From the IMG/VR virus record IMGVR_UViG_3300045988_131126: 64,000 bases of DNA, one strand, 5' to 3'. Positions 899 through 56,276 of this stretch are shown here, piece after piece. Made by a program: the position numbers and the translations under genes. Every line of letters starts with the position of its first letter. Within the stretch, counting starts at the first letter, position 1. The DNA is from a virus. The notes under the pieces were generated by a model. The model was not told the DNA's origin. It did no database searches and saw only the letters and a list, made by a program, of their open reading frames with translations.

Positions 899-945
899 AT
901 TAAACATTAAATTAAAAATGATAAAGAGTAAGGAGGTGCACTAAG

Positions 946-1337: not shown

Positions 1338-3116
1338 ATGGGTGCTATACTTGATAAATATATTAATCAGCTTCAGTCCTGGCTTGGTTATAATGAAGCC
1401 GATGGTACAGATGATATTATTATTAAAACATATAATAGTCAACGCCCATCTGGATCGTACAAAATGTCAATGGATGATCCTTGGTGCCATGCTACTATAT
1501 CAGCAGCTGCATATAAAGTAGGTATTTCTGGAACTATTATTCCTAATACTTGCTATTGTCCGGATGGTATAGATTGGTTTAAATCTAAAGGACAATGGGT
1601 AGGCAGAAACAGCTCTAAATACAACCCTATACGTGGAGATATTATCTACTATGATTGGGGCGGAGATGGAGAATCTGATCATGTAGGAGCAACAGTATCT
1701 AAAGATGGAAATACACTTCAAGTACTTGAAGGTAATAAATCTGATAAGTGCTGTTATAGATATATAGATCAATATGATAGTTGTATCATGGGATATGGTA
1801 GACCAGACTATGATGGTAACGGTGGTAATACAGGTTCTACTAAAGAAGATAGAAACTGGTTACAAGAAGGTGATTCTGGTAATGATGTACTAGAAATGCA
1901 GAAAAAATTAAAAGCTATAGGCTATAGTATAGATGTAGATGGAGAATGGGGTCCAGCCACAACTAAGGTAGTAAAACAATTCCAAAAAGATAACGATCTT
2001 AATGTAGATGGTGGATTCGGTGAGTTAAGTTCAGCTAGACTTAATGTATTATATAATAATAAGCAAACTACAGTTACTCCTACTACAGATTATATAGGCA
2101 AATATGTAAAAGAGTTTGAATCTGGAAATGCTGGTCCTACATCTATCGAACATTGCGGAGATGATGGTGGATTATCATATGGTACATATCAATTTATTTG
2201 GTCTTATGATAATGAGCCTGGATCTGCTCAGAGATTCTGGGATAAATACTATGCTAATACTTATGGTAAAGCTACCTCTTATGCAGATCTTAAAAATAAA
2301 TGGTTAAAAGCAGTAAAAGCTGATAAGAAAACATTTATTGATAATGAATGGGAATATGTATTAGATGGTGGAGAATATTATTCTCAAATGATTAGTACTT
2401 TAAAAGGATATTTTAATCCAAATACATTCTCTAGAGCAATGCAAGATTGTTGTTGGTCTTGGTCTGTTCATAGAGGTGGATATGGTGCTGCTACAGAGTT
2501 TAAGAAAGCTTGCGCTGCTGCTGGAATAGATGATCCACAGAAAGCAAAAGAAAAAGACTTATTAGCAGCTTGCTATGATTATAGATGGAAACATATTACT
2601 TATAACGGTAAGAGATTGACCAGATATTCACCAGATGGTGGAGAAGATAGCGAATATGTAACCATTCAAACTAAGATAGGACTTAAGCCTATAGATTATA
2701 TTACTCCTAGCGGTAAATTGATCAAGAAAGTTACTACCGGAAATAATACTAGTACAGATAAACCAAGTTCTTCTGATACTAAAAAAGAAAGTACTGCTGA
2801 TTTAGAAGCTTGGCAAAAGAAATGGTTAATGTCTGTACAGAAAATAGTAGGTGTAAAAGCTACTGGAATATACAATAAAGATATATTACACTATATTACT
2901 ATCTTAGATACAGGTTCTAAAGGATCATTAGTTAAAAAGCTTCAGGAGAAATTGATTCATCTTCAATATACCGAAGATCCTATAACAGGAACATATGATT
3001 CTAATACAAAGAAACTTGTAAAAGAATATCAAAAGTGGCATAGTATTACTGCTAATGGAGTTTGTAATATAGAAACTTGGGAGCAGTTATTATCAAAAAG
3101 AAAAGGTATAAAATAA
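1338..3116 (+). CDS. multidomain endolysin: CHAP/NlpC-P60-type amidase/peptidase, PG_binding_1, lysozyme-like domain, PG_binding_1
   Basis: Cys-His pair pattern DDPWCHATISAAAY ... GESDHVGATVS ... LEGN. Two peptidoglycan-binding repeats: GNDVLEMQKKLKAIGYSIDVDGEWGPATTKVVKQFQ, and a C-terminal GSLVKKLQEKL...TKKLVKEYQKWH. The central ESGNAGPTSIEHCGDDGGLSYGTYQF segment resembles phage tail-lysozyme or transglycosylase-like domains. RBS TAAGGAGG. Confidence 0.85.
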   Translation: MGAILDKYINQLQSWLGYNEADGTDDIIIKTYNSQRPSGSYKMSMDDPWCHATISAAAYKVGISGTIIPNTCYCPDGIDWFKSKGQWVGRNSSKYNPIRGDIIYYDWGGDGESDHVGATVSKDGNTLQVLEGNKSDKCCYRYIDQYDSCIMGYGRPDYDGNGGNTGSTKEDRNWLQEGDSGNDVLEMQKKLKAIGYSIDVDGEWGPATTKVVKQFQKDNDLNVDGGFGELSSARLNVLYNNKQTTVTPTTDYIGKYVKEFESGNAGPTSIEHCGDDGGLSYGTYQFIWSYDNEPGSAQRFWDKYYANTYGKATSYADLKNKWLKAVKADKKTFIDNEWEYVLDGGEYYSQMISTLKGYFNPNTFSRAMQDCCWSWSVHRGGYGAATEFKKACAAAGIDDPQKAKEKDLLAACYDYRWKHITYNGKRLTRYSPDGGEDSEYVTIQTKIGLKPIDYITPSGKLIKKVTTGNNTSTDKPSSSDTKKESTADLEAWQKKWLMSVQKIVGVKATGIYNKDILHYITILDTGSKGSLVKKLQEKLIHLQYTEDPITGTYDSNTKKLVKEYQKWHSITANGVCNIETWEQLLSKRKGIK

Positions 3117-8431: not shown

Positions 8432-9646
8432 TTAGGGCAAATAAAAACATATACTGTGTGGGGACAGTATATGTGTGAAATTATAGTATGGTGTGTTAGT
8501 GTTATAATAATCATATCCATTTATAAATGGATCAATAAATAATTCGTTAAATAGTTTATCAAGGCTCATAATAGAAGTATAACACATACCTCTACGCTTT
8601 ATAGAACCTTTCCAAGACTTATATGCATTTAGAATTTGATCGAAAGTCATTTTACCAATATCCATTAAATGTCTAAACTTTTTAAGTCTTCTTCTTTCTC
8701 TTGTAATAGTTTTATTCACAACCCTTTTAACAACTTTACCAGTTTCGGTAAGTCTAAATCGAGTTTTTAAGAATGTAAATTGTTTAGATATTTTCTGTAA
8801 TCTACATTTCTTTTCACTGAAAGATAATCCAAGTTTAGTGGCAATTTGTTTTACACCTTGTATTACTTTCATTAAGTATTTCTTAGAATGATGTATAATA
8901 ATACCATCATCCATATATCTATCATATCCATGCACTCTCATTTGATCTTTTACATAATGATCTATTGGATTTGGATAATATACAGCGCTTATTTGTGATA
9001 TTTCACTTCCTAATCCTAAACCAATTTTACCAAATGCATAAATAAAAGTTTCTACATACTTCATTACATGATCAAATATAAGCTTACTCCTTTCAGCTTC
9101 TACTAGAGCATGTAATGGAATACTTCCAAAATAATCATGAAAATCAAACGTATAAATCCATCCTTTAAGACCATATTTCTTATAATGATCTTGTAAATGC
9201 TTAACTACACGTTTAATTTGATGATGCGGACCTCTACCTTTTAAAGTAGCTCCATTATCATAAATTAAGTAAGGTCTCAATACAGGAGTGATGCAATTTT
9301 TCACAAAAGATTTTTGCACTACACGTTCTTCTATAGTAATACTCTTTATATGTCTTAATTTACCTCTCTCCTTAATATCAAAACAATGGAATCCTCTTGG
9401 AGTAAATGATCCAGTATAACATTCTACGATTAAGTCTGGAAGATTAGTCGAAATAAATATACCGTAGCGTTGTACTATGGCTTTCCAATCAGTTCCTGCT
9501 TTACAAAATTTATACGATTCATATAATGCAGATTCAGAGAATACATCATTAAGATTGGAATGCTTTCTAGCAAGTTCCATTCTCTTTGCCAATCTCTTAG
9601 CTTTTCTTCTCTGATATCTAGCTTCGTGTCTTTCTTTGCTATTCAT
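8432..9646 (-). CDS. DGR reverse transcriptase
   Basis: RT motifs: catalytic YMDDGIIIH and the DGR-typical IGLGLGSEISQISAVYY (I/LGxxxSQ). A TR lies immediately upstream. Confidence 0.9.
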   Translation of the reverse strand: MNSKERHEARYQRRKAKRLAKRMELARKHSNLNDVFSESALYESYKFCKAGTDWKAIVQRYGIFISTNLPDLIVECYTGSFTPRGFHCFDIKERGKLRHIKSITIEERVVQKSFVKNCITPVLRPYLIYDNGATLKGRGPHHQIKRVVKHLQDHYKKYGLKGWIYTFDFHDYFGSIPLHALVEAERSKLIFDHVMKYVETFIYAFGKIGLGLGSEISQISAVYYPNPIDHYVKDQMRVHGYDRYMDDGIIIHHSKKYLMKVIQGVKQIATKLGLSFSEKKCRLQKISKQFTFLKTRFRLTETGKVVKRVVNKTITRERRRLKKFRHLMDIGKMTFDQILNAYKSWKGSIKRRGMCYTSIMSLDKLFNELFIDPFINGYDYYNTNTPYYNFTHILSPHSICFYLP

Positions 9647-9911
9647 AATTTATTTTTAACTAGAAAATTTAGGTGCTGTGAACAGAGAGATCTACCATGA
9701 AATACATAAAGTACCATGCAAGAAGCGTCCGGTAGCTCCCATCAGCTAATTTAGAAGTTCTAGTTATATTGACCTCCTAAACACATCTATTTATTTAATA
9801 CTCTAAACGAATATTAAAATGGGTAAATAATCTCCTTCTGCAAGGAAATTTTGTTAATCTAAAGATTTCGCACTATAGATAGTGTTACTGTGTCGCTCAT
9901 AACAACTCTTA

Positions 9912-10019
9912 CAGAATCAGAAGCACACGCCATTGCTGTTGCTGGCATTGTTGTTGTTGTTGCTACCGTCCGAGTTGACATTACAGAAGTTGTTGGTGTT
10001 GTTGTAATTAGGCGAACGA
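9912..10019 (-). repeat. DGR template repeat (TR)
   Basis: The coding-strand reading is CGT TCG CCT AAT TAC AAC AAC ACC AAC AAC TTC TGT AAT GTC AAC TCG GAC GGT AGC AAC AAC AAC AAC AAT GCC AGC AAC AGC AAT GGC GTG TGC TTC TGA TTC TG. It is AAC/AAT-rich and has a 108-bp colinear match to 10705-10812. Confidence 0.85.
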
Positions 10020-10061
10020 AAAAGGTTTACAGATTATTCCCCTTGTAAAACATAATATTTA

Positions 10062-10562
10062 TTAAGCTACAAATTTAACGATTTTACTATTTTGAACTTG
10101 TGTTTGTGTATTACAAATAGCTCGAGTATCTTTAAATCTCTTTTCATCACTACGAATAATCTTTTCTAAAGTATTAATTTCTTTATTTAACAAACTTAAC
10201 CATGTGTTTAAATCGGAATCTCTGACAGAAACTAATGGTGAATTTTCACCATTATCAACTTCATGCTTTATATAAAGCAATGCTGATATATCTGCAGAGA
10301 TTGAACAAGCTACTCCTTTAGCTTGTAAAAGGAATTGTCTCCTCATTGCAAAATCTTCTTTATATTTAATAGGAAATATAGAATTTCCCTGTATACATAA
10401 ATTATTTAAACATCTAGCTTTCTCCAATAATGGATGAGCTATCATGTAAGTATATCTTTTAGGCATTGATAGACATATACGAAGCGCCAACTTATACAGT
10501 TTAAAAGCATCGTATACGAATTGTGCACTAGATAGGTTTCTTTCACCTGCTGGCACACTCAT
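10062..10562 (-). CDS. avd: DGR accessory variability determinant (Avd-like four-helix-bundle protein)
   Basis: It sits between VR and TR. The LSMPKRYTYMIAHPLLEKARCLNNLCIQGNS pattern matches the four-helix-bundle (Avd / 23S rRNA-IVS protein) motif P-K-x-x-x-Y-x-hydrophobic...N-I-x-E-G. Confidence 0.7.
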   Translation of the reverse strand: MSVPAGERNLSSAQFVYDAFKLYKLALRICLSMPKRYTYMIAHPLLEKARCLNNLCIQGNSIFPIKYKEDFAMRRQFLLQAKGVACSISADISALLYIKHEVDNGENSPLVSVRDSDLNTWLSLLNKEINTLEKIIRSDEKRFKDTRAICNTQTQVQNSKIVKFVA

Positions 10563-10637
10563 ATCAAATCTCTCCTTTCTTTTGTATACTTTAATAAAAA
10601 GTTAGGGTTATCAAACCTTACAAGAAAAAATAAAAGG

Positions 10638-10665
10638 GTTGGTGGATCTGTACAGATCCACCAAC
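10638..10665 (-). terminator. GC-rich perfect hairpin 33 nt downstream of the VR-bearing gene
   Basis: GTTGGTGGATCTG ta CAGATCCACCAAC, followed on the minus strand by CCTTTTATTTTTTC. Besides terminating, a stem-loop just 3' of the VR is a known DGR accessory feature. Confidence 0.65.
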
Positions 10666-10697
10666 GATGGATTTGCTCGACAAGCTCGCAAATCTGA

Positions 10698-11771
10698 TTA
10701 TACGCAGAAGCAGAAGCACACGCCACCGCTGAAGCTGGCATAGTTGTAGTTGTATCTACCGTCCGAGTAGACACTACAGAAGTCGTAGGTGCTGCCGTAA
10801 TAAGGCGAACGAGTCCACCACCAATAAGCATCTCCACTACCATTATTCAGTTTCTTTATTCTAGAATTATTATCTGTAAATATAGGAAACTTTTTCTGAT
10901 TAGACTCAGTATTAGACTGGTATGTAAAACCAACTTCTGTACAACCAGGCAAAAATACTTTATCTTTAGAAGGTCTACCAGCGTTGGACGATGAAGTACC
11001 ACCACCTAAATTGGCATATGTGTTTACTTCTTTAATATAAGACTGTAAATTGGAAGGCATACTTTTGAAAATATTCTGCATAACAGTTTTCTTCATATCT
11101 GTATCATTCCAACCGCCAGAGTTAGTATCAGAACTATTCATTTGTCGAGTATTCTTCATTAAATGCTTCATTCCAAATACTATACCAGCTTTACCAGATC
11201 CATCAGATTTATCAAAGTGTTTGAAATCCCAAATCTGTAAAGTAACAGTCTCATTAAAAGTTCCTGATAAGGTGATATTAATTTCATCTCCAACTTTCCA
11301 TGTGGATGGAATAGCATCACCTTCACTAGCAGCTTTTATTTGTTCCCATGTGTTATCTTTCAATGTGGGGGCAAAGGACAATGGTATGGCAGCAAAAATC
11401 AAGTTGCTAGAATCGTTGTATACTTTGGCAGTATTATATGGGAAGAATCTATAATAATACTTATGGTTATTCGTTAAGCCCGAATCTGTATACCAAGTAT
11501 TCTTATATTTATCCCTTGTAGTGTTGTCTAGTACTACATCGCCATCCTTAATAGATTCAGGATAGTGATCAGCATTACGTATTAATAAAGTTCCTTTCCA
11601 AGCAGATATAGTAGTCCCGTCAACTACTGTATCTTTTGGATCGGACCATTTGATTAATACTCTACCGTTATTTACGGTTGATGAGATAGAGGTTACATCG
11701 CCCGGGGGAAATCCCTTGGAAGAAGATCCAGAGATCGTGGCAGATGCTCCACCTCTTACAATAACACTCAC
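10698..11771 (-). CDS. DGR target (variable) protein: FN3-like N-domain, conserved central domain, C-terminal VR
   Basis: Track ORF. The C-terminus WWWTRSPYYGSTYDFCSVYSDGRYNYNYASFSGGVCFCFCV is encoded by the VR. The variable residues sit exactly where the TR has AAC/AAT codons. Confidence 0.85.
   Translation of the reverse strand: MSVIVRGGASATISGSSSKGFPPGDVTSISSTVNNGRVLIKWSDPKDTVVDGTTISAWKGTLLIRNADHYPESIKDGDVVLDNTTRDKYKNTWYTDSGLTNNHKYYYRFFPYNTAKVYNDSSNLIFAAIPLSFAPTLKDNTWEQIKAASEGDAIPSTWKVGDEINITLSGTFNETVTLQIWDFKHFDKSDGSGKAGIVFGMKHLMKNTRQMNSSDTNSGGWNDTDMKKTVMQNIFKSMPSNLQSYIKEVNTYANLGGGTSSSNAGRPSKDKVFLPGCTEVGFTYQSNTESNQKKFPIFTDNNSRIKKLNNGSGDAYWWWTRSPYYGSTYDFCSVYSDGRYNYNYASFSGGVCFCFCV
10705..10812 (-). 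repeat. DGR variable repeat (VR) at the 3' end of the target gene
   Basis: 108 bp colinear with the TR. I count 17 differences. Sixteen fall at TR adenines (for example AAC to TAC, GGC, AGC, GAC, TTC; AAT to TAT, AGT, GGT). One is not at an adenine (AGC to AGA). Confidence 0.85.
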
Positions 11772-15417: not shown

Positions 15418-16497
15418 TTATACATTAAAACAAAAACATACACCACCAGAAACGTCTGCATTATAACCATGCACATACCCTGCGCCATTATAAAACATAT
15501 TTCCATCATAGTCTACAAATATAACTATATTTGTCTCGTTTTCTTCCGTAGATCTTAAAAACCAATCGTTATTGACACCAGATCGTTTTTTTATTCTAGA
15601 ATTTTTATCTGTGAATATAGGAAATTGGGTCTGTCCAGCTTCTGTGTTATATTGTTCAGAAGACCATTTTCCGAATACTTCTATAGATCCTGGTATAAAT
15701 ACTTTATCTTTTGATAAAGTTCCTTTTTCAACTTTACCTACATAGGTATAATTTTCATTAGCATATGTATTGACTTTTTTTAATACATTTTGCAAATCTA
15801 TAGGCATACTGGAGATTATTTTAGGTATATAAGTTGTTCTCATCGTACACGAACTCCAATAAGGATATTCTAAGCAATTCTCTTCTTTCATTAAGTTCTT
15901 CATACCAAATACTATACCTGCTTTTCCACTACCATCAGATTTATCAAAATGATTAAAATCCCATATCTGTAAAGTAATAGTTTCATTATATGTACCAGAT
16001 AAAGTAATATCTATTTCATCCCCTATATTCCATATAGAAGAAGCTATACCTGACTCACTAGCAGCTGCTATTTGTTCCCATGTATTATTCTTTAATATAG
16101 GATCAAATTCTACTACAGCAGCGCTATATATCATACCACTATCATTATTATATATTTTATCAGTATTACAAACAAAAAATCTATAATAATAAGTATCTAT
16201 CTCTAAATTATTATCAGTATATTCAGTATTTTTATATTTATTTTTCTCTGTAGTTTCTAATACTATATCTCCATCTTTAATACTTGTAGGAATTGATCCT
16301 TTTTTACGTACTAATGTAGTAGATTGCCATGTAGATAATGTTTTATCTCCAATTACTACATCATCAGGATCTGTCCATTTAATGGTTACTTTTTTATTTC
16401 CGCCTTTGATAGTTACATTAGTTACATTTCCCGGAGGATATCCTTTGGATGATCCTCCTCCACTTGAACTATCTATTCTTTTTATTAAAACGCTCAT
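15418..16497 (-). CDS. paralogue of the DGR target protein (more diverged C-terminus)
   Basis: Same domain order. Ends ...YNADVSGGVCFCFNV. Confidence 0.8.
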   Translation of the reverse strand: MSVLIKRIDSSSGGGSSKGYPPGNVTNVTIKGGNKKVTIKWTDPDDVVIGDKTLSTWQSTTLVRKKGSIPTSIKDGDIVLETTEKNKYKNTEYTDNNLEIDTYYYRFFVCNTDKIYNNDSGMIYSAAVVEFDPILKNNTWEQIAAASESGIASSIWNIGDEIDITLSGTYNETITLQIWDFNHFDKSDGSGKAGIVFGMKNLMKEENCLEYPYWSSCTMRTTYIPKIISSMPIDLQNVLKKVNTYANENYTYVGKVEKGTLSKDKVFIPGSIEVFGKWSSEQYNTEAGQTQFPIFTDKNSRIKKRSGVNNDWFLRSTEENETNIVIFVDYDGNMFYNGAGYVHGYNADVSGGVCFCFNV

Positions 16498-16662
16498 AGA
16501 GTAATTTACTTCCTTTCCAATGTGGGGAGCACAAACAAAATCAGTAATTACCCTCTATATAACAAGTTTATTTATAAACTTGTTATATAGAGGTCTTTTT
16601 AACGTATATGAACGTATTACTATAAAATTATATAACTTTTGTCCCCGGAACAGGAGTATATA

Positions 16663-17757
16663 ATGAGTATTTTAATAAAAGGAATAAGCAACTCAAGTGG
16701 ATCATCTAAAGGGTTTCCTGTAGGAAATGTAACCAATGTATCTATATATTATTTAAATAGTAAAGTATATATTAAGTTTTCTGATCCGAATAATACCGTA
16801 GAAAATAATATTACTTTATCCACTTGGTATAGTACTATTATAGTAAGAAAAGAAAATAGTATTCCTACTAATATTAAAGATGGAGATATAATATTAGAAA
16901 ATATTATTAAAGATAAATACAAAGAAACTGATTTTATCGATACAAATATAGAGATCAATCGTACTTATTATTATAGATTTTTTGTTTGCAATACTGATAA
17001 AATATATAATAATAGTAGCGATATGATATATAAAGTAGAAACAAAAAATATAGATAGTAATATAAAAAACAATACATGGGATCAGATAAGCAAAGTTTCA
17101 GAATTAGGCTTAGCTTCTTCTATATGGAAAGTTGGGGATGAAATTAATATTAAATTATCTGGTACATATAATGAAACTATTACTTTACAAATATGGGATT
17201 TTAATCATTTTGATAAAAGTGACGGTAGCGGTAAAGCAGGTATAGTATTCGGAATGAAAAACTTAATGAAAAATACAGATTATATGTCTAAAACTGCAGG
17301 ATATGGAAATGAGGACGGATGGGGAAGCTCATATATGAGAAAAACTGTAATGAATAAAATATATCAATCTATGCCAGATGAAATAAAACCCAAAATTAAA
17401 CAAGTCCATATAGAATCAACAAGAGGCGGCAGTACAGGGGAAGGCGCAGGTATTGGTGTACCTACAGATGACTATATATTTTTACCGGGAAAATGTGAAG
17501 CTTGCTATAGTAAGTCTGAATCGCAGTCAAATTTCCAAAAACGATTCCCTATATTTACAGATGATAGTTCTAGAATAAAGAAATTATCCAATGGTAGCAA
17601 AGCCGTTGAAAGCTGGTGGGTGAGGGATGCTGATGATAGTTATTACACGGCCTATAATTGCATAACAACTGCGGGAAGTACGTCTACAATGTATGGAAAT
17701 CCAAATGGATCTTTTACTGCGTATAAAGCAGGTGTTTGTTTTTGCTTTAATATATAA
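16663..17757 (+). CDS. paralogue of the DGR target protein, on the opposite strand
   Basis: Start moved to MSILIKG (ATG at 16663 after GGAACAGGAGTATATA). Same family motifs. Ends ...AYKAGVCFCFNI. Confidence 0.8.
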   Translation: MSILIKGISNSSGSSKGFPVGNVTNVSIYYLNSKVYIKFSDPNNTVENNITLSTWYSTIIVRKENSIPTNIKDGDIILENIIKDKYKETDFIDTNIEINRTYYYRFFVCNTDKIYNNSSDMIYKVETKNIDSNIKNNTWDQISKVSELGLASSIWKVGDEINIKLSGTYNETITLQIWDFNHFDKSDGSGKAGIVFGMKNLMKNTDYMSKTAGYGNEDGWGSSYMRKTVMNKIYQSMPDEIKPKIKQVHIESTRGGSTGEGAGIGVPTDDYIFLPGKCEACYSKSESQSNFQKRFPIFTDDSSRIKKLSNGSKAVESWWVRDADDSYYTAYNCITTAGSTSTMYGNPNGSFTAYKAGVCFCFNI

Positions 17758-42349: not shown

Positions 42350-42354
42350 AATGT

Positions 42355-42404
42355 CTCTACCACCTTTAATGAAGTTTATTACTCCATTGTTTTCGGTGGT
42401 AGAG
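42355..42404 (-). promoter_or_regulatory. 10-bp stem that would sequester the SD of 41177..42349
   Basis: On the minus-strand RNA: CTCTACCACC (42404-42395), a 30-nt loop, then GGTGGTAGAG (42364-42355), then ACATT and the ATG. The 3' arm contains the SD. Confidence 0.4.
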
Positions 42405-44150
42405 AATTTTTATTTTGAAATTATGATATTTTTATATTCTCGATTTTATTTAAACCTTGTGATATTTTTATAATTTCTGATTTTATTTTGCGACTATGAT
42501 ATTTAAATCAAAATGATTTTATTTAATTTTCCTGATGTTTTGCCCTTTTTAATTTTATTTAATCTTTATGATATATTTCCAAAAATAATTTTATTTAACT
42601 GCTACGATATTTTATAATTTCTGATTTTTATTTCTGCTTATTGATCTTTTACCAACTGTGAATCACTTAGCATATTATGATATTTATGTGTTTCTGGTTT
42701 ATTTAACTTGTTTGATGTTTTCAGTTGTCTGATTTTACTTTGATAATATGATATTTAATCTCTCTCGGTTTATTTTTAAACTATGATGTTTTTATCTATG
42801 TGATTTTATTTGAATAATATGATATATTTCGGAGATTAATTTATTCACGAAGCATGATATTTATATTAATTTGATTTATTGTTTCTACTTGATACTTTTG
42901 AGCCTTCGATTTATTCTTGTTTTATGATATTTTCAATATGATGATTTTACTTTCATCAAATGATATTTAAGTGTAATTGGTTTATTTGTATTACATGATA
43001 TTTTCGCTCAAATGAATTATTCTTTTGGAAATGATATTTTTCCGACTGTGAATCACTTTGTAAGTATGATATTTATGTGTTTCTGGTTTATTATTAAAGA
43101 ATGATGTTTATACTTTTTTAATTTTACTTCAGTAATATGATATATATACTTTGATGGTTTATTTGTATCATACGATATTTTCACCTATTTGATTTTATTT
43201 AAATCCTATGATATATTTTATTTGTTAATTTATTTTGTCGGTATGATATTTCGAGATTTCTAATTTTTTCACTATAATTGATGATTTTATAATTTATGAA
43301 TTGCTTACATTCTCTGATATTTTTATCAATATGGGTTACTCCATAAATATGATATTTAGGAATATATGGTTTATTATTGAATCGTGATGTTTAAGCTTTT
43401 TTGATTTTACTCTAACAATGTGATATTTATACGCTTTGGGTTTAATTATGTCCACTTGATATTTTGAGGTATTTAATTTGCTTAAGGACAATGATACTTT
43501 TTCGTTTTCGGCTTATTATTACCCTACGATATATCTATTTCAATAATTTATTAGCGTTAGATGATATATTAGATACGCTAATTTATTGGTGTTATATGAT
43601 ACTTTTTTAAGCATAATTTTACTTTTACGATTTGATATTTAAAATCACTTGGTTTATTAAATTCTTTTGATATTTTTGTCGAAATAATTTACTCACTCTT
43701 TTAGATATTTATTAATATTTGGTTTATTATTATATATTGATATTTTCACAGCGATAATTTTACTTTCTTGATATGATATTTAAAATTTTATGGTTTATTT
43801 ATCCTATATGATATTTTTTACATATTAATTTATTAGCGTTAGATGATATATTAGATACATTAATTTATTAGTGGAAAGTGATCCCTTTTTAAGCATAATT
43901 TTACTTTTTCGTTCTGATATTAAAAATTTCTTGGTTTTATTAAAACTATATAATATTTTATTGTAAATAATTTATTTGGTTTCATTGATAGCTTTATTTA
44001 TTTGATTTACTTACTCTTTTAGATATTTATTAATATTTGATTTATTATCATATTTTGATATTTTTAACATGAATAATTTTACTTTTTCATTCTGATATTT
44101 AATATCTTCTGGTTTATTTATATCATATGATATTTCTTCAAGTGTAATTT
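42404..44150 (+). repeat. array of about 49 head-to-tail units of 35-36 bp, each with two conserved cores and variable linkers; no ORF
   Basis: The TGATAT cores are at 42424, 42460, 42497, 42533, 42569, 42605, 42642, 42678, 42713, 42749, 42784, 42820, 42855, 42890, 42925, 42961, 42996, 43032, 43067, 43102, 43138 ... 44128. That is 48 intervals with a mean of 35.5 bp. Each unit is (a)TGATATTT, about 10 variable nt, (t)GATTTTAYTT or GGTTTATT, then about 8 variable nt. Confidence 0.9.
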
Positions 44151-44152
44151 AA

Positions 44153-44183
44153 ATCAGAGATAGGTAACTTACCTATCTCTGAT
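44153..44183. terminator. 14-bp perfect hairpin closing the array and following the stop of 44193..45923
   Basis: ATCAGAGATAGGTA act TACCTATCTCTGAT. The T-rich tract ATATTTTATTTAT follows on the plus strand, and GATTTAAATT follows on the minus strand. Confidence 0.65.
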
Positions 44184-44192
44184 ATATTTTAT

Positions 44193-45923
44193 TTATCCAT
44201 TATATTTTGGATATTCCGCTCTCTTATCTGGTTTAAATGTAAGTTCTGTTTCAAACGGTACTTCTGGTTTGATATAGTCTACATGACCGAGTCTAGAGAT
44301 TGGGAATACCATTGGCGGAAGTTCTCCATTTTCATAAATATACATTGCTTCAAATACATGCTCTACAAAAATCTTTACTGTCCATCTCTTCGCTCTTGCT
44401 GCAATCTGAGCCGGTGGAAGCATTCCTTTAATGTAGTAGCTATACGCAATGCTATTCTTGCTATAGTTTTTAGCTCTAAGAGCTTTTGCAGCCTGGTCTT
44501 TATATTCCAGGTTTTCGTTTTTACGTGTTTCATATTCCTTCCTTTCTTTATATAACTCTCCATACATAGAACCTCTATTAGATACTTTAACGAAAGACTC
44601 TCCAATCTTCCACATAAGAACTTTCAGTTTAATATTGTATGGAGGCTTAGATAAATAAGAAATTAAGGATTTCTTAGTAATAAATCCATCGTATTTATCT
44701 TCCTCTTTATTAATAGTAGCTGATTTAATCATATTATTGATCTTTCTTCTACCATTAAGTTTTGTGTACAGGTTGCTCATGATTACATGGGTGATAATAT
44801 TCTTATCGGATAAATTGATAATATAGTCAACAAAATGATCTATACTAAACGGTTCCTCCATATTAATTACACCGAGATATGTTTCGTATGTATCCATATG
44901 AAGAATTTCATCTTCAATAGATTCATATTCTACTTCTGTATCATCAATCTCTTCTCTCTGATTAAGCTGTTTATAGGAACGTAAATCTTCATCGACAATT
45001 TTTCTAGCTAATAATATAAGCTTAGATAATTCTTTATTAGGCATTTTACTGATTACATATTCCTTGATTGCATTTTCATTATATAATAGATTTTCTGCTA
45101 AAGATTTATCAATATCAATATCAAGTTCTTCGCAAGCTGCGGCGAATCCTTTGTTTCTAATATCTCTAATAGCCATTAAATCTTTAACAATATTGGTTGC
45201 TTTCTCTTTGCCTAACCATGGATTATTATTGTCATTTAATCCTGCATATGACCAGAAGTTACCTGCAGAATTAACTCCATCTACATTAAAATATGCATAT
45301 AAGCAAGAACTGATTACTGGCCCAATACCTTTGTTTCGTTTTAACCATCTAGTTACTGGATTAGTATCAGAATATGCTTCAAGCATAGCTTTGGTATTAT
45401 CTTCAATATTTCTAAGCTGTAATAAGTTCCATTTCATAATAGATACATTGTCAGGATTATCATTATTATCGTATCCCTGATTTAATGATCTTACCTGATT
45501 CTCTGTACCAATTCTGAAATCCTGAATCTGATAATAAAAATCTACTAATGATTTGACCTCGTTATAATTAAGTGTCACTACAGTTTTCTTAAGGTCTTTA
45601 GACATTTTTCCAAGACCTATAACATTCTGCTTAAGTACACCATCTTCCATTTCCGCATCAGGCTCAAACTCTTCGATATCTTCTTCTGTCGCTTTTTCAA
45701 ACTTTAACACTTTCTTTTCTTTCTTAGACTCTTCATTCTTTTCCTCTTTATCATTCTTTTTAGTAGTTCCGGAAGTCTTTGTATTCTTTTCGTTAATAAT
45801 TTCTTCAACAATTTTCAAAGATTCTAAATCTCCCATACCTATAAAATATGACCTAGCCTCCTCTAAAGTTTTCATTCTACTTCTTGTTGATAATTCTTTT
45901 CCTCTGAATAATAATTTTGTCAT
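44193..45923 (-). CDS. hypothetical protein with a helix-hairpin-helix segment resembling the IS110-family Transposase_20 domain
   Basis: NKGIGPVISSCLYAYFNVDGVNSAGNFWSYAGLND parallels the IS110 C-domain pattern GIGP...A..L.A.......F.s......yaGL. No DEDD/RuvC-like N-domain was recognised. The N-terminus is K/E-rich. Confidence 0.6.
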   Translation of the reverse strand: MTKLLFRGKELSTRSRMKTLEEARSYFIGMGDLESLKIVEEIINEKNTKTSGTTKKNDKEEKNEESKKEKKVLKFEKATEEDIEEFEPDAEMEDGVLKQNVIGLGKMSKDLKKTVVTLNYNEVKSLVDFYYQIQDFRIGTENQVRSLNQGYDNNDNPDNVSIMKWNLLQLRNIEDNTKAMLEAYSDTNPVTRWLKRNKGIGPVISSCLYAYFNVDGVNSAGNFWSYAGLNDNNNPWLGKEKATNIVKDLMAIRDIRNKGFAAACEELDIDIDKSLAENLLYNENAIKEYVISKMPNKELSKLILLARKIVDEDLRSYKQLNQREEIDDTEVEYESIEDEILHMDTYETYLGVINMEEPFSIDHFVDYIINLSDKNIITHVIMSNLYTKLNGRRKINNMIKSATINKEEDKYDGFITKKSLISYLSKPPYNIKLKVLMWKIGESFVKVSNRGSMYGELYKERKEYETRKNENLEYKDQAAKALRAKNYSKNSIAYSYYIKGMLPPAQIAARAKRWTVKIFVEHVFEAMYIYENGELPPMVFPISRLGHVDYIKPEVPFETELTFKPDKRAEYPKYNG

Positions 45924-50798: not shown

Positions 50799-53150
50799 TT
50801 AGTTAATAATATCAAATCTTGATAACTTAGCATGAGCTATAAGTTCATATTTATTAGACTCATAATATTTGATCTGCTCATACTCTTTCTTCCAGTCTTC
50901 TATAGTATACTGAAGTAAAGTTCTATTCTCAGGATCCAATGTAGATTCAAAGAATCTAGGTCCATCCATTTCACCAAGACCTTTATATCTCTCAATCTTA
51001 GATGGTTTACTAGCATCAAATGTACTCATTAATGAATATAATGATACCACTTCACCATTAAGTTTATATACTAATGAAGCATTCTTATTCATCATAGAAA
51101 TGATATTCTTAGAATCTTCAATAAGGCTATCGTTCATAAATACCGTATGAACTTTTCCGTTATAGGTTACCTCTAATACCGGAATACCCTTTTTTGTACT
51201 AGATTTTACAAATCTAAATAACTTTTTCAGATTCTTCTCGATTTCTTTTAACGGCTTATCTCTTAAAGTTATTACAGACTCTAATATCAACGGATCTATA
51301 CATAATCTATTTGCAATTCTATTGACTTCATACGTATAGTCATTATTATCATATAATAAGTGAGATAATTCATCTTTAGAAAGAACTTTTCCATTTATAT
51401 ATTCTACTTTATTAGTCTTACTAAATATACTCTGGACATATTTAATATAATCGATCTTGTACTTAAAATAATTATATTTCTTTCCAACCTGCATACCGTA
51501 TAATGGTGGTACAGCTTTATATACATATCCAGCTTTTATTAAATCTGGCATATACATCATAAAGAATCTTATAAATAATGAACTAATATGATCACCATCT
51601 GCATCAGCATCTGTTGCTAATACTATCTTTATAAATTTAACTTTTGAAACATCGAAGTTCTTTCCGTATCCAGCACCTATTAATGTAATAATACCAGATA
51701 TCTCTTCATTACTTAAGAACTTTGCTGGAGCTGTATTAAACGCATTCGGAATTTTACCTCTAATCGGAAAATATCCTTGATGTTTAGTATCTCTACTGTT
51801 TCTCATAACTCCAGCTGCAGAATCACCCTCGCATATCCATAATTCCAAATCATGTTTTAATGAAGGTTTTACATATTTAGCTGGTAAACCTTGTCCGAAT
51901 GCTGACGCCTTGAAGTTCTTAGAGATTTTGATTTTCTCCGTATCTGCTTTCATTCTAGCATCTGCAATATCTTTAAAGTACTTACAAAGCCTATTAAGAT
52001 CATTTGGATTAGCTTTGATCCATTCAGATAATCCATTATAAATTGTATCATTAACGAATTTATCCATTTCTCTTACTTCCAAGATCTCTTTGGCTTGACC
52101 ATTGAATACTGGTTCAAGATGAAAACCAGATATTACTGCTATTAATCCTGTTTTAATATCTGCATTAGTTACAGTTGTTTTGTTTCTAGGATTACTAGAC
52201 AAATATACTTTATTCATATAATTGGTAAAGAACTTACATATTCCTTTCATAAATCCATTTATATGATCTCCTTGACTTGTCGGACAAGTATTACAAAAAG
52301 ATATAATTCTTTCTCCAGATGTAGTATTATCCATATCATAAGTAAATGCTAAATCCACTTTCATAATACCAGTATCTGCTGTAATGAATACTGGAGTTAT
52401 CAGAGGATTGGTACAATTCTGATAAAAGTATGTCATAATACCGTCTTCATTTACAAGTGTTTCTGACACCTTTTCTCCATTAGCTCTAATACCATTAAAT
52501 ATAATCTTAGCTCCAATTTTATTTAATGGTAAAATAAGCTTAACCAAATTTAATACATTATCTACTGTAACATATCCATCACCAGATTTCTGAAACTCTA
52601 ATGCTTCTTCTGCAGGTTTAAATACTACAATAGTACCCTGTTTATTTGTTTTATTTTGGATTTTCTTTTCTCCTTGTTTCCAAGGCTCTCCATTATTAAA
52701 TTCTACTCTTCTTCCCTCACCCAATACATAAGAATCTACATAGAAGAATTCTGATAACGCATTTGTTACTTTTGCTCCACATCCATGTAGACCAGATGAA
52801 TACTCTCCTTTTTTCTTATTATAGTTTGAAGATGTATTCATATCCGTAAAAGCTCTAATGATAGATCCAAACGGAATACCTCTACCATTATCTTCTACAA
52901 TAATCGTTTTACTATTTTCATCATATGAAATAATTACAGTATCACACGGAGAACTGTCTTTCATTATTTCATCTAATGCGTTCTGGATAATTTCTCTGAT
53001 CATATTTAAATGACCTTTAAATCCTCTAGAACCAATCCACATACCAATATTCTGTCTGACCTGAGCTACCCAATTATCAATTGTAATAAGCTCATCACCA
53101 TAATTCTTGATATTGTCAATCATTTCTTGGGATAATTCTTTTTTAGCCAT
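50799..53150 (-). CDS. type II DNA topoisomerase, B (ATPase/Toprim) subunit (GyrB/ParE/T4 gp39-like)
   Basis: GHKL ATPase motifs (IIQNALDE, DNGRGIP, GLHGCGAKVTNALS). Toprim motifs (ELWICEGDSAAG, LATDADADGDHI). Confidence 0.9.
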   Translation of the reverse strand: MAKKELSQEMIDNIKNYGDELITIDNWVAQVRQNIGMWIGSRGFKGHLNMIREIIQNALDEIMKDSSPCDTVIISYDENSKTIIVEDNGRGIPFGSIIRAFTDMNTSSNYNKKKGEYSSGLHGCGAKVTNALSEFFYVDSYVLGEGRRVEFNNGEPWKQGEKKIQNKTNKQGTIVVFKPAEEALEFQKSGDGYVTVDNVLNLVKLILPLNKIGAKIIFNGIRANGEKVSETLVNEDGIMTYFYQNCTNPLITPVFITADTGIMKVDLAFTYDMDNTTSGERIISFCNTCPTSQGDHINGFMKGICKFFTNYMNKVYLSSNPRNKTTVTNADIKTGLIAVISGFHLEPVFNGQAKEILEVREMDKFVNDTIYNGLSEWIKANPNDLNRLCKYFKDIADARMKADTEKIKISKNFKASAFGQGLPAKYVKPSLKHDLELWICEGDSAAGVMRNSRDTKHQGYFPIRGKIPNAFNTAPAKFLSNEEISGIITLIGAGYGKNFDVSKVKFIKIVLATDADADGDHISSLFIRFFMMYMPDLIKAGYVYKAVPPLYGMQVGKKYNYFKYKIDYIKYVQSIFSKTNKVEYINGKVLSKDELSHLLYDNNDYTYEVNRIANRLCIDPLILESVITLRDKPLKEIEKNLKKLFRFVKSSTKKGIPVLEVTYNGKVHTVFMNDSLIEDSKNIISMMNKNASLVYKLNGEVVSLYSLMSTFDASKPSKIERYKGLGEMDGPRFFESTLDPENRTLLQYTIEDWKKEYEQIKYYESNKYELIAHAKLSRFDIIN

Positions 53151-53190
53151 TATGATTATTCCCCTTTACGTATATTTAAAAAATAAAAAA

Positions 53191-53216
53191 GTGTAGAAGA
53201 GAATTCTCTTCTACAC
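53191..53216 (-). terminator. strong intrinsic terminator 40 nt upstream of the topoisomerase B start codon
   Basis: GTGTAGAAGAGAA/TTCTCTTCTACAC palindrome. On the minus strand it is followed by TTTTTTATTTTTT. Confidence 0.7.
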
Positions 53217-53259
53217 TTTTGTTATTCTCTATTTTCAGCATAAATATATGAAATTAATT

Positions 53260-53580
53260 TTAATTGCGTTCTGAGATTGACCGAGTGCTCCGACTGAATG
53301 ATCTCCCTTAACGATTCAACCTTGCAGGGGCTTCTATACGCGCGCTTAAGCCCGTTGTAGCAAAGTAACCGCATTTCCATATTCATTCCCAATTGCCGAA
53401 GTCTTATCCTTCAAACAACGATCGATCTCAGAACTCACATATGTTAAAATAGACAGATGTTTGGCGTATCCTAATATCAACTTAGCTCGCAGCGGACTCT
53501 TGCATATTAAACGCATCATCATGTCCGACTACGACCACTCTCGTGACTACAAGGATAATGCAGAGATAATATCTCATCTT
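53260..53580 (-). ncRNA. candidate structured RNA (leader/riboswitch-like element or stand-alone ncRNA); class unknown, strand inferred from context
   Basis: No ORF of 60 aa or more in any frame. My hand count for 53281-53580 gives about 44% GC (131 of 300) in a roughly 30% GC window. Long-range pairing GTTCTGAGAT (53268-77) with ATCTCAGAAC (53425-34). Local stems include GGGCTT...AAGCCC and a CTTCGG loop. It lies between the terminator of 53643.. and the terminator at 53191-53216. Confidence 0.45.
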
Positions 53581-53642
53581 TTCTTGTCTACTTTAATAAT
53601 ATGTTTAGAGAGATTGTAAATTAATACAATCTCTCTTTAAAT

Positions 53643-54578
53643 TTATGCTTCAAGTGTTCCAGTTGCATTTACTCTTTCTACTGCTCCATTTGCAGGAACT
53701 GTTGTCTGCTGATCTGGAGTTGCTGGCTGAGCTGGTGCAGGAGCTGGCTGAGCCATCTGCTGATTCTGTGCTCCATATACCGGATAGTTCTGCTGAGGCT
53801 GTGTAGGCGCAGAATAAGTCTGCGGCATACCCATTGGCGGTACAGGCGCATTAACAATAGGAGCTGGTGCTACTCCATTAGCATAAAATGGATTTGCGTT
53901 CATATCTGGTGCTCCATATGTCATTCCACCCTGATTATTCATCATTGGTGATACAGGCTGCTGATATCCATATCCAGGATATGCTGGCTGCTGTGGCACA
54001 CCACCCATATTATACATTGGATATCCCATAGTACCACCATTTGTGATTTCTCTAAAGCTGTTGAATAATCCATTATTCTGCATATATACATCCTGTGTTG
54101 AACTTGCACTTGGAGCGAATCTGGAATAATTCTCTACAGCGATATCATAGAGTTTCGGAATCTTATCAACGAATGGTAAGATTGTGAATAACTGTCTTAC
54201 AACTGTTTCTGGAATATTTACATACATAAGTTTGCAGCATTCCATAACATTTTTAAAATCTTTTACAATCTGTTCTACTTTCTCATGAGTAAGATCATCT
54301 GGATTTAATCTTGCTCCACAGATTGTACACACCACGTCACCGGTGCCATCTTTAGTTTCTGCAATAGAGAACTTGTTTGTCCCAGGATATTTATGAGTAC
54401 AAAGACCTCTATTAATTTCCTGGCTAGTTACTTTCAGTGAGAACATAGCATCAGATTTAGTTAATTCTGCAGCTTCATCTTTTGTAAGCGGCTGAGTAAA
54501 TTTGATGTTCTGTGGCTGTACTCCATTGAAAGTCTGGCCTGCTACTGGGTTAACAAAAGTGTTGTAAAAATTAGACAT
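53643..54578 (-). CDS. protein with an N-terminal Cys/His cluster and a long Q/P/Y/M/G-rich low-complexity C-terminal half
   Basis: Start moved to MSNFYNTF (SD AAGGAGGACAAACTT). CTHKYPG...VVCTICGARL resembles a zinc ribbon. The C-terminal roughly 120 aa read GYPMYNMGGVPQQPAYPGYGYQQPVSPMMNNQGGMTYG...QPQQNYPVYGAQNQQMAQPAPAPAQP. Confidence 0.65.
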   Translation of the reverse strand: MSNFYNTFVNPVAGQTFNGVQPQNIKFTQPLTKDEAAELTKSDAMFSLKVTSQEINRGLCTHKYPGTNKFSIAETKDGTGDVVCTICGARLNPDDLTHEKVEQIVKDFKNVMECCKLMYVNIPETVVRQLFTILPFVDKIPKLYDIAVENYSRFAPSASSTQDVYMQNNGLFNSFREITNGGTMGYPMYNMGGVPQQPAYPGYGYQQPVSPMMNNQGGMTYGAPDMNANPFYANGVAPAPIVNAPVPPMGMPQTYSAPTQPQQNYPVYGAQNQQMAQPAPAPAQPATPDQQTTVPANGAVERVNATGTLEA

Positions 54579-54752
54579 AAGTTTGTCCTCCTTAAATTTA
54601 TTATTCTTTTTTGTGAAACTACAATTATGAATTAGTTTCATCTTTTTTATTTTATTACGTCTACTACCTTTGTAGTTGGCGTAATACGTACAAGCACTAA
54701 CTTGACTTATTAGTGCTTGTAAATATTCATTGATTTGTTTTAAATTTTTATT

Positions 54753-56190: not shown

Positions 56191-56276
56191 CTTTTGTTCC
56201 TCCTTTTTATTTTTTTTATATTTGTACATCCTTTCTACCTTGGATGCACAAATATAATATACAATAATACTAAATA

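Follow-up and report, generated by a model that had tools for sequence, protein, structure and literature searches.

The spacer at positions 53151-53642 of the window (the whole 64-kb stretch of DNA analysed here) is probably an independent gene for a structured noncoding RNA (ncRNA) of about 415 nt that folds into two domains. The RNA matches no Rfam family, and compensatory change very probably maintains its fold throughout a clade of gut jumbo phages that are uncultivated. A preliminary description of this DNA had proposed either a riboswitch or attenuator, its preferred reading, or an ncRNA standing alone, some 350-390 nt long and ending in a terminator of its own. The conserved, covarying structure argued for the stand-alone RNA; the terminator was recovered, and the RNA was predicted to be slightly longer than proposed, about 415 nt (53594 to ~53180). 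We favour the stand-alone RNA gene because no Rfam family matched, no conserved antiterminator was seen, the promoter-like motifs P1 and P2 were present, and the helices covaried. The features are listed in Table 1. The window covers part of a larger genome, whose size is at least 148 kb and probably about 265-285 kb.

Table 1. Features of the spacer and of the gyrB-like gene that follows it, in transcription order.
Feature	Position	Strand	Basis or remark
Hairpin 1, 12-bp stem, just past the stop codon that ends the 332-aa gene upstream	53607..53636	-	Terminator scan
P1, promoter-like motif TAAACATATTATTA	53594..53607	-	AACA 53605-53602, N6, TA; predicted +1 = A53594
Predicted RNA of about 415 nt, +1 to end of terminator U-tract	53178..53594	-	Motif position and folds
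Domain 1, long branched hairpin with hypervariable arm	53446..53594	-	MFE folds of eight members
Single-stranded linker AACAUAUGU	53437..53445	-	Read from sequences
Domain 2, closed by long-range helix	53266..53436	-	Folds
Apical hairpin of domain 2, GGGCUU/AAGCCC	53328..53353	-	Fold
Conserved GGAGCAC motif, 3' side of domain 2	53285..53291	-	
A/U-rich 3' tail, largely unstructured, domain 2 to terminator	53224..53265	-	
P2, second AACA-N6-TA (AACAAAAGTGTA)	53212..53223	-	Predicted +1 = 53212, inside terminator 5' arm
Terminator T2, 15-bp stem (53220-53187) and U-tract (53186-53178)	53178..53220	-	Terminator scan; hairpin -20 kcal/mol
gyrB ribosome-binding site (RBS) AAAGGGG (53167-53161) and ATG (53150-53148)	53148..53167	-	
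gyrB-like topoisomerase gene	50799..53150	-	Pfam DNA_gyraseB, Toprim, HATPase_c, DNA_gyraseB_C

Both genes flanking the spacer were on the minus strand, and the spacer sits within a block of replication genes. The GC content was 0.44 in the core of the element (53300-53499) and 0.303 in the window, in agreement with the earlier hand count of about 44% against about 30%. For the spacer as a whole it was 0.36, and no other gap of more than 150 nt in the window had a higher value. The spacer had been described as free of open reading frames (ORFs). This was true of conserved ORFs and of ORFs with a family match, but not of mechanical ones, which were present at lengths of 31-58 aa. None of these had a Pfam or PHROG match, and no protein homology was detectable in the frames. 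In close relatives, they were broken by frameshifting indels or early stops; among near-identical phages, the spacer had indels 1, 5 or 12 nt long and one premature stop. The 58-aa ORF was recorded once in a public collection, on a 577-nt fragment, and this was the only gene call there for this stretch. Frameshifts, early stops and the lack of family matches all speak for the absence of a conserved reading frame. Between phages 97% identical to each other, 21 substitutions were found in 259 nt of the core versus none in 262 nt of the flanks.

We compared the spacer with homologous intergenic regions, as the preliminary description had advised. Protein-guided retrieval from metagenome contigs of the gut gave twelve distinct versions of the element, each flanked by the same pair of genes; the lineages lay beyond nhmmer detection and could not be aligned to each other by it. 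The layout was constant: all twelve had the hairpin, TAAACA-N6-TA, two domains, the tail and the terminator. The core varied in length from 241 to 395 nt and the whole RNA in relatives from 287 to 440 nt, with hardly any conserved sequence and only short motifs in common. Every relative with an identity of 80-100% in the N-terminus of the gyrB product carried the element, and it was lacking at 60% or 43% identity. Relatives at 60% identity or below had a 157-nt spacer instead, with a normal terminator in the position behind the upstream gene. This distribution shows a single origin of the cassette, in the ancestor of this gut jumbo-phage clade, and vertical inheritance since then; its sequence turns over fast under selection for the fold. 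A patchy, mobile distribution was rejected by the ranking of gyrB identity. A lineage-specific insertion confined to the 97%-identical phages was also rejected, because the protein-guided retrieval reached 80% gyrB identity.

Searches by nucleotide sequence found little more. No match to the element was obtained by blastn against GenBank phages. Exact-word scans of IMG/VR with four words from the core and promoter, filtered by nhmmer, gave only two near-identical contigs and chance matches. A scan of GTDB genomes for the terminator pattern gave three matches, seemingly by chance; in IMG/VR, the same pattern picked up unrelated jumbo phages in which the terminator stem follows a small ORF and the element is lacking. 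There was no second copy of the element within the 64-kb window. We also considered the core as the target of a diversity-generating retroelement (DGR) and rejected this, because the window had no repeat partner and the substitutions were mostly transitions. The real DGR of the window lies elsewhere.

The fold was computed for both strands. The minus strand had the lower energy (-124.3 versus -100.7 kcal/mol), and its helices were rich in G-U pairs, which become A-C mismatches on the plus strand. With the terminator included, the minus-strand fold had a z-score of -5.0. Without it, the core had a z-score of -2.1 in the window, a weak thermodynamic signal, and of -1.25 (L073) to -6.5 in seven other members. 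The decisive support for the structure is covariation in homologues, not thermodynamics.

Every helix named in the preliminary description was present. The closing helix of domain 1, AAAGUAGACA/UGUCUAUUUU, begins at the predicted +1, and the start of domain 1 coincided with the predicted +1 in all eight representatives when folded separately. At the linker, a motif resembling (C/U)AUAUG(U/A)GAG recurred in several lineages. Domain 2 is closed by GUUCUGAGAU (53434-53425) and AUCUCAGAAC (53277-53268), the 10-bp long-range helix described earlier from the DNA letters as GTTCTGAGAT at 53268-53277 and ATCTCAGAAC at 53425-53434. Its apical stem corresponds to the noted GGGCTT (53328-53333) and AAGCCC (53348-53353). 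The GGAG of the GGAGCAC motif pairs with G-N-CUYYGG (GACUUCGGC, 53404-53396). GGAGCAC was found in group A, L078 and L080, and L090 had GAAGCAC. A CTTCGG-type loop had also been noted; the sequence is there, but the consensus fold pairs it, as a 5' strand, with GUCGGAG in a helix and shows no tetraloop. The 3' tail was about 20-50 nt long and differed among lineages in length and sequence.

The closing helices of both domains covaried between lineages, the outcome for which the preliminary description had proposed a comparison of homologues. For the cross-lineage comparison, helix strands were taken from each sequence's own fold; self-pairing is thus partly built in, and the information lies in the comparison with foreign partners alone. 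For domain 1, whose closing helix had six versions, a strand of that helix paired with its own partner at 8 of 8 positions versus 5.6 of 8 with the partner of a foreign lineage, and 12 of 20000 permutations reached the observed total. The corresponding values for the closing helix of domain 2 were 9.8 of 10 versus 4.7 of 10, with 51 of 20000 permutations. For hairpin 1, with four lineage sequences that were all fully paired, they were 11 of 11 versus 7.3 of 11, with 750 of 20000 permutations reaching the observed pairing total.

Individual changes agreed with these totals. In the closing helix of domain 2, CUGAG/CUCAG was replaced by CUAAG/CUUAG in L078, U-A by C-G and C-G by U-A in L080, and the whole helix by unrelated, fully paired sequence in L083 and L090. 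Within group A, 98.4% of cells were paired, versus 38-49% with slid partners; three pairs had double changes, and there were 21 further pair types. Between L083 and L090, 22 of 65 pairs had double changes. The GGAG helix with G-N-CUYYGG was kept in five versions while the partners changed, and the apical stem had G-C to A-U and G-U changes. The secondary structure was thus held by compensatory change in the homologues.

In the 14-nt apical loop of domain 2, AAGCGCGCGUAUAG, positions 53340-53345 form the palindrome GCGCGC, which occurs once in the 64-kb window. A GC palindrome was present in the equivalent loop of 11 of the 12 members, as GCGCGC, GCGCGCGC, GAGCGCUC or CCCGGG, and was missing in L091. 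The loop thus varied while its palindrome was preserved, the pattern looked for in a symmetric kissing loop. In a shuffled core, a 6-mer palindrome made of G and C only would turn up at some position with a probability of 0.003-0.15, and GCGCGC in three of the lineages may simply be inherited. The self-duplex of the palindromes was predicted at -13.5 to -19.7 kcal/mol. We suggest, tentatively, that the loop might let two copies of the RNA pair through a symmetric kissing loop.

The predicted start of the RNA comes from P1. TAAACA-N6-TA was invariant in all twelve members, with variable sequence on both flanks, and in each of them it set +1 at the opening base of the first helix. The consensus for late promoters of AR9's non-virion RNA polymerase (nvRNAP) is A(-11)ACA-N6-U-A/G(+1) (PMC7598289, PMC9209446), and both P1 (53605-53594) and P2 (53223-53212) fit it on the non-template strand. 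The late units of AR9 and PBS1 likewise have AACA-N6-TA with +1 at the final A, as in P1. In the window, AACA-N6-TA was found 22-38 nt upstream of late-type genes, including a head-tail joining gene. It was enriched in intergenic DNA (17 of 82 versus 35 of 421; Fisher p = 0.002), modestly so given a TA background of 13.4% against 20.7%. A further match lay inside domain 1 (53461). A hairpin followed by TAAACAT also preceded a protein-coding gene at 860-914. The window had a second class of motif resembling the AR9 early promoter (ATATTAT); no RNA polymerase gene was found among its scanned ORFs. We infer that P1 acts as an AR9-type late promoter. A sigma-70 promoter for the RNA was rejected, since the candidate hexamers lay in the covarying hairpin 1 and were not conserved. 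Hairpin 1 itself probably marks the end of the upstream gene, outside the RNA. Because it had no U-tract on the minus strand, transcription of the upstream operon may continue into the element.

At the other end, the strong terminator noted earlier just upstream of the gyrB ATG was confirmed. Its stem, GTGTAGAAGAG..CTCTTCTACA, was conserved in sequence across all lineages and was followed on the minus strand by TTATTTTTT; the hairpin had energies of -16 to -22 kcal/mol across members. P2 was kept in every member as ATAACAA[AC][AT]GTGTA, and a relative without the element, L054, had ATAACAACAGTCTA about 55 nt upstream of the gyrB ATG. P2 is a candidate for gyrB's own promoter. The closest cultured relatives of the gyrB-like protein were those of AR9 and PBS1. 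gyrB is an early gene in AR9, transcribed from an early promoter, and no early-type promoter was found between T2 and the gyrB ATG. This leaves room for control of gyrB by read-through at T2.

Known RNA families did not account for the element. The core had no match in Rfam 15 at the gathering threshold or at E <= 10, and the only hits were chance matches on the terminator hairpin; seven homologous loci had no Rfam match at E <= 0.1. The search suggested in the preliminary description, including ROOL, GOLLD, riboswitches and T-boxes, thus returned no family. The covariance models of ROOL, GOLLD, OLE and raiA (raiA as far as it is in Rfam 15) matched neither the window nor the seven loci. ARAGORN found no tRNA or tmRNA in the element. 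A signal recognition particle (SRP)-like RNA, considered for the motifs GGAGCA and AGGUCAG, was rejected because Rfam gave no SRP match. A CsrA-type GGA sponge was rejected because a hand count gave seven GGA against about six expected.

The closest parallels are in architecture. ROOL, GOLLD and OLE are large bacterial and phage RNAs that form RNA-only homo-oligomers, and the symmetric kissing loops of OLE (L9.3) and GOLLD (L21a) were argued from loops that change yet stay self-complementary (PMC12286853). Like them, the element is predicted to be a phage-encoded multi-helix RNA of several hundred nucleotides with a unit of its own, and like OLE and GOLLD, its apical-loop palindrome changes yet stays self-complementary. 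Unlike them, it is smaller (287-440 nt), has only two domains, has no tRNA island beside it (3807-3878 holds the nearest tRNA) and is confined to one phage clade; oligomerisation is here a prediction. The pRNA of phi29 is also a phage-encoded two-domain RNA that acts in trans and assembles by loop-loop pairing, as is predicted for the element. However, it uses two different complementary loops instead of one palindrome, and it is a 174-nt RNA of small podoviruses, whereas the element is in jumbo phages and has no Rfam match. The palindromic kissing loop of the HIV-1 dimerisation initiation site (PMC7357161) offers a parallel of principle only, without homology, in another context and with no implied role in packaging. 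AR9 has a 222-nt spacer before gyrB with an annotated early promoter and no comparable annotated RNA.

For a stand-alone RNA gene, the following course of events is predicted. Transcription would start at A53594 from an AR9-type late promoter, past the hairpin ending the upstream gene, and would stop at the strong terminator (53220-53178). The RNA folds into two domains, as the covariation shows; the closing helix of domain 1 would seal its first nucleotides and the terminator hairpin its 3' end, which is what one expects of a stable RNA acting in trans. gyrB would be transcribed from P2, with a start inside the 5' arm of the terminator. Transcripts from P2 would carry no more than a truncated hairpin of 7 bp, set apart from the U-tract, and should therefore not terminate at T2.

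The element could instead be a cis-acting leader of gyrB, in which transcripts from P1 or the upstream operon meet T2 as an attenuator regulated by a protein, RNA or ligand. It shares the layout of riboswitch and attenuator leaders, a structured RNA followed by an intrinsic terminator and a gene. In every case it immediately precedes gyrB and shares its strand, T2 is about 28 nt from the RBS and unusually conserved in sequence while hairpin 1 covaries freely, and the early-type promoter that AR9 gyrB uses is missing between T2 and the ATG. Unlike such leaders, however, the element has no known aptamer and matches no riboswitch, T-box or leader family, and its core, 241-395 nt long with little conserved sequence, is not that of a conserved aptamer. 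In nascent-transcript folds of the members, no conserved pairing competed with T2; the 5' arm of T2 was unpaired in L080 and L091 and otherwise in weak tail pairing that differed among lineages. P2, common to an element-less relative, gives gyrB a probable start of its own, and relatives express gyrB without such a leader. We therefore consider the leader, the preference of the preliminary description, unlikely. The missing U-tract of hairpin 1 would also fit a structured 3' untranslated region or intercistronic segment, in which hairpin 1 does not terminate and the fold stabilises or processes a polycistronic mRNA; transcription of the entire block could come from an early-type motif at 56263. 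This would leave the invariant TAAACA-N6-TA and the coincidence of +1 with the first base pair unexplained. The arrangement of hairpin and TAAACAT before the protein-coding gene at 860-914 and the normal terminator in element-less relatives also speak against it, and we regard it as improbable.

Two further explanations dispense with a noncoding RNA of this kind. The palindromes, the location in the replication-gene block and the concentration in the core of the divergence between 97%-identical phages could be those of a DNA-level element (an origin, cruciform or protein-binding site) or of a neutral inserted remnant. This seems very improbable, since the compensatory changes and strand-specific G-U pairs point to pairing in RNA, the architecture was kept while the sequence was replaced, no protein homology was found in the frames, and an iteron-like array at 42350-44192 is a far better origin candidate. 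Least credible is a small protein or type I toxin-antitoxin locus, with a 31-aa hydrophobic ORF (53482..53577, beginning MRYYLCIILVV) on a folded mRNA and an antisense RNA ending at hairpin 1. A T-rich run past hairpin 1 on the plus strand and a weak sigma-70-like site at 53543-53570(+) would suit it. However, only 17-19 codons of the ORF were left in L051, after a deletion of 5 nt, and in L053, after an insertion of 1 nt. The ORF had no counterpart in L078, L080, L083, L090 and L091, and had neither a family match nor an AAGGAGG-like RBS as used elsewhere in the window. The frameshifts largely refute such a locus.

Within the favoured reading as a stand-alone RNA gene, a more specific proposal can be made, though we think it less likely than not. 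The RNA might found a new class of phage RNAs capable of self-assembly, late-expressed and two-domain, forming homodimers or larger assemblies through the symmetric GC kissing loop. It would then be a smaller jumbo-phage counterpart of OLE, ROOL and GOLLD, encoded in a promoter-terminator cassette with the promoter of the next gene hidden in the terminator.

Few large structured phage RNAs are recognised, and most are without a known function. A new family with a clear architecture gives a handle on how phages use RNA beyond tRNAs. The RNA is compact enough for structure probing or cryo-EM, its 5' and 3' ends are sharply predicted, and the dimerisation hypothesis is simple and testable. It comes from abundant, uncultivated jumbo phages of the human and pig gut. 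In a neat arrangement, the predicted promoter of the next gene has its start site within the terminator, and the locus suggests that the AR9-type grammar of early and late promoters extends to gut jumbo phages.

The spacer upstream of the gyrB-like topoisomerase gene (table) carries a genuine structured RNA that is conserved and whose family is absent from Rfam 15. The preliminary description had pointed to a GC-rich, ORF-free stretch with a long-range helix, local GC stems and a closing terminator. Each feature it listed was recovered in place, and the core had 44% GC against 30.3% for the window. The GC content of the spacer was the highest among all window gaps >150 nt. Because G-U pairs are numerous in its helices, the element was fixed to the minus strand; the folding energy of the spacer was −124.3 kcal/mol (z = −5.0) on this strand and −100.7 kcal/mol on the plus strand.

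Features of the spacer, its neighbours and other elements in the window
Feature	Coordinates	Strand	Remarks
332-aa ORF	53643..54641	−	upstream of spacer; no Pfam or PHROG match
Spacer	53151-53642		all neighbouring genes on − strand
Hairpin 1	53607-53636		12 bp; terminator scan; T-run on + strand only
Promoter-like motif P1	AACA 53605-53602, predicted +1 53594	−	matches AR9 late consensus
GGAGCAC motif	53291-53285		3′ side of domain 2; GGAG pairs with G-N-CUYYGG
Promoter-like motif P2 (AACA-N6-TA)	AACA 53223-53220, predicted +1 53212	−	overlaps 5′ arm of T2
Stem of terminator T2	53187-53220	−	15 bp; terminator scan; U-tract on − strand
gyrB-like type II topoisomerase subunit, 783 aa	50799..53150	−	Pfam DNA_gyraseB, Toprim, HATPase_c, DNA_gyraseB_C
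Reverse-transcriptase ORF (phrog_1423)	8432..9646	−	diversity-generating retroelement
Rfam RT-2 RNA	9651..9815	−	diversity-generating retroelement
108-nt repeat, template copy	9912-10019		diversity-generating retroelement
108-nt repeat, second copy	10705-10812		84% identical; 3′ end of DUF6273 gene 10698..11771
Further DUF6273 paralogues	15418..16497, 16639..17757	−, +
tRNA gene, single	3807-3878	+	Rfam tRNA, 69 bits

An ORF-free 1.8 kb of 21% GC lies at 42350-44192, with about 50 degenerate ~35-nt repeats (TGATATTT...GGTTTATTT / GATTTTACTT) spaced at multiples of ~35.3 nt. It adjoins a 576-aa ORF (44193..45923) that matched a PHROG 'transposase' family and no Pfam family, and could serve as an iteron-type origin of replication or be a repeat array of another kind. 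A complete diversity-generating retroelement occupies 8432-11771.

The preliminary description had recommended a comparison with Rfam. With Rfam 15, the core gave no match at the gathering threshold or even at E <= 10, all weak hits falling on the terminator hairpin, and ARAGORN found nothing in the locus; a catalogued RNA was therefore rejected. A gene remnant was rejected as well: mechanical ORFs of 31-58 aa in the spacer had no Pfam or PHROG match and were disrupted among phages 97% identical overall, by a CAA-to-TAA stop (locus L001), a deletion of 5 nt (L051) and an insertion of 1 nt (L053). In public gene calls the 58-aa ORF has a single record, from a 577-nt fragment. Novelty is judged here against Rfam 15; candidate phage and microbiome RNAs have also been catalogued computationally on a large scale (PMC10690425, PMC8040213).

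No match was found by blastn against GenBank phages, and word scans of IMG/VR gave only two near-identical contigs. Loci were retrieved from IMG/VR and JGI metagenomes under guidance of the gyrB protein, and homologues of the 332-aa protein were traced to their contigs for further spacers. This yielded 12 distinct spacer versions from human and pig gut assemblies, comprising group A (the window, L001, L050, L051, L053/L079, L073, L075 and L082) and five further lineages (L078, L080, L083, L090 and L091). The spacer was 367-525 nt in every phage with 80-100% identity over the first 300 gyrB residues, and ~157 nt with a single terminator in L054 (60% gyrB identity) and L003/L055 (43%). Ranked by gyrB identity, this pattern fits a single gain of the element followed by vertical descent and is at odds with a mobile element.

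All 21 substitutions between the window and L001 were within the 259-nt core, with none in 262 nt of flanks. One arm of domain 1 (alignment columns 121-180, window ~53470-53540) was hypervariable among phages otherwise 97% identical, with three haplotypes and indels of 1-5 nt that were only partly compensated.

The 332-aa protein (homologues P0001-P0022) has no Pfam or PHROG family. Its N-terminal half is conserved and Cys-containing; its C-terminus is Q/P/A-rich and of low complexity, raising local GC to ~50%. Its syntenic position is kept even in phages lacking the RNA. One contig, L081 (2698-2965), has a homologue whose aligned part, 73% of the query, is 90% identical. Another terminator and another gene take the place of the RNA and gyrB behind it, which indicates a local rearrangement in that phage.

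Core sequences were too diverged between lineages for detection by nhmmer. Read side by side, all lineages shared the same order: stop codon, hairpin 1, an invariant TAAACA-N6-TA, a first domain, a short AU-rich linker, a second domain with a long-range closing helix, an A/U-rich tail, the terminator GTGTAGAAGAG..CTCTTCTACA and U-tract, AAAGGGG and the gyrB ATG. Eight representatives, cut at the A of TA, were folded independently, and in six of them two domains appeared with the first nucleotides in the domain 1 closing helix. In L078 this helix was possible, but the lowest-energy fold left the first nine nucleotides unpaired; in L073 the outer part of domain 2 was not resolved. Core z-scores without the terminator were all negative but uneven (−1.25 to −6.5). 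Shared motifs were few: an AUAUG(U/A)GAG-like motif in the linker, GGAGCAC, and the apical loop of the long hairpin of domain 2. Outside the gyrB context, the terminator stem was also found in other jumbo-phage contigs (L084-L089; for example, L085 1969-1998). There it closes a small gene (~58 aa) that has a strong ribosome-binding site and is preceded by a structured region.

The helices covaried between lineages. The domain 1 closing helix occurred as AAAGUAGACA/UGUCUAUUUU, AAAAUAAACC/GGUUUAUUUU, AAAUAAACCA/UGGUUUGUUU, AAAUGGAU/AUCCAUUU, AAAUGAAUG/CAUUCAUUU and AAAUGAGAU/AUCUUAUUU. In the long-range helix of the preliminary description, which closes domain 2, CUGAG/CUCAG became CUAAG/CUUAG in L078, L080 had two pair swaps, and in L083 and L090 the sequence was unrelated yet fully paired. 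Hairpin 1 had four different stem sequences. The test strands were taken from the folds of the sequences themselves, so that the contrast with foreign partners alone is informative: own versus other-lineage partners paired at 8 versus 5.6 of 8 positions in the domain 1 helix, 9.8 versus 4.7 of 10 in the domain 2 helix and 11 versus 7.3 of 11 in hairpin 1, totals reached in 12, 51 and 750 of 20000 permutations, respectively. Within group A, whose alignment is shallow, 98.4% of cells were paired in the RNAalifold structure, against 38-49% with partners slid by 1-3 columns, with three double-change pairs and 21 additional pair types (for example, GGGCUU/AAGCCC to GGACUU/AAGUUC and ACUUUGC/GCAAGGU to ACUUUAC/GUAAGGU). 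Between L083 and L090, double changes affected 22 of 65 pairs (covariation term −14 kcal/mol).

The closest cultured relatives of the gyrB-like protein were those of phages AR9 and PBS1 (~30% identity). For the AR9 non-virion RNA polymerase, the published consensus of late promoters is 5′-A(−11)ACA-N6-U-A/G(+1) (PMC7598289, PMC9209446). P1 was invariant in 12/12 members, whereas the sequences on either side, hairpin 1 and the downstream helix, varied. AAACA-N6-TA also lies 22-38 nt ahead of the head-tail joining gene (start 26242), the gene at 17858, the small gene preceding the endolysin gene and others. In the window, AACA was followed by TA at that spacing in 17/82 intergenic cases versus 35/421 (p = 0.002), an enrichment only 1.5-fold above the intergenic TA frequency. 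A second class of motif, T[AG]TATATTAT[AT], stands 25-60 nt ahead of the start codons of several other genes (for example, 56263, 49465, 46190, 41142, 36572 and 14255, minus strand) and is similar to the promoters annotated as early in AR9, AAATTTATATTAT. By analogy, the two motifs suggest that this uncultivated gut phage has early and late promoter classes like those of AR9. They give reasonable but indirect evidence for AR9-like transcription; no RNA polymerase gene was seen in the window. A second hairpin directly abuts TAAACAT-N5-TA at 860-914 (+), arranged like hairpin 1 and P1; a small protein-coding gene starts ~33 nt further on and precedes the endolysin gene (1338..3116).

All lineages retain P2, in the form ATAACAA[AC][AT]GTGTA, and in L054, which lacks the element, ATAACAACAGTCTA lies ~55 nt before the gyrB ATG; this suggests that P2 may be the ancestral gyrB promoter. 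A transcript from 53212 would retain only AGAAGAG-AAUU-CUCUUCU, with ACAC before the U-tract. Because the truncated hairpin would be split from its U-tract, P2-started transcripts should not terminate at T2, and RNA arriving from P1 would form the full hairpin (−20 kcal/mol). The overlap with P2 would also account for the sequence conservation of the T2 stem, as against hairpin 1, which is free to covary.

The element is most likely a transcription unit of its own, probably expressed late, and less likely a leader of gyrB. Of the two readings offered in the preliminary description, the stand-alone RNA gained from the conserved structure and the promoter-like P1. A riboswitch or attenuator acting on gyrB would account for the constant position of the element in front of this gene, for which no early-type promoter is visible, and upstream transcription may enter the element because hairpin 1 has no U-tract. 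Such a leader is nevertheless the less likely reading, as no RNA family matches, the supposed aptamer would span 241-395 nt and no antiterminator is conserved: in nascent RNA folded up to the T2 5′ arm, this arm was unpaired (L080, L091) or weakly paired with differing tail segments.

The apical loop of domain 2 carries a palindrome: GCGCGC in group A and L080, GCGCGCGC in L083, GAGCGCUC in L090 and CCCGGG in L078; the L091 loop has none. GCGCGC occurs once in the whole window (53340-53345), and an all-GC 6-mer palindrome arose anywhere in shuffled cores with a probability of 0.003-0.15. Predicted self-duplexes had −13.5 to −19.7 kcal/mol. Self-complementary bases that lie next to each other are unable to pair inside a single chain; palindrome-preserving variation has therefore been used to argue for symmetric kissing loops between molecules of the large structured RNAs OLE and GOLLD (PMC12286853). 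The HIV-1 dimerisation site works in the same way. As three lineages may share an ancestral GCGCGC, the independent changes supporting kissing number only two or three, and we hold dimerisation of the RNA through this loop as a tentative possibility. Possible self-association through the loop palindrome is the best mechanistic lead on the element.
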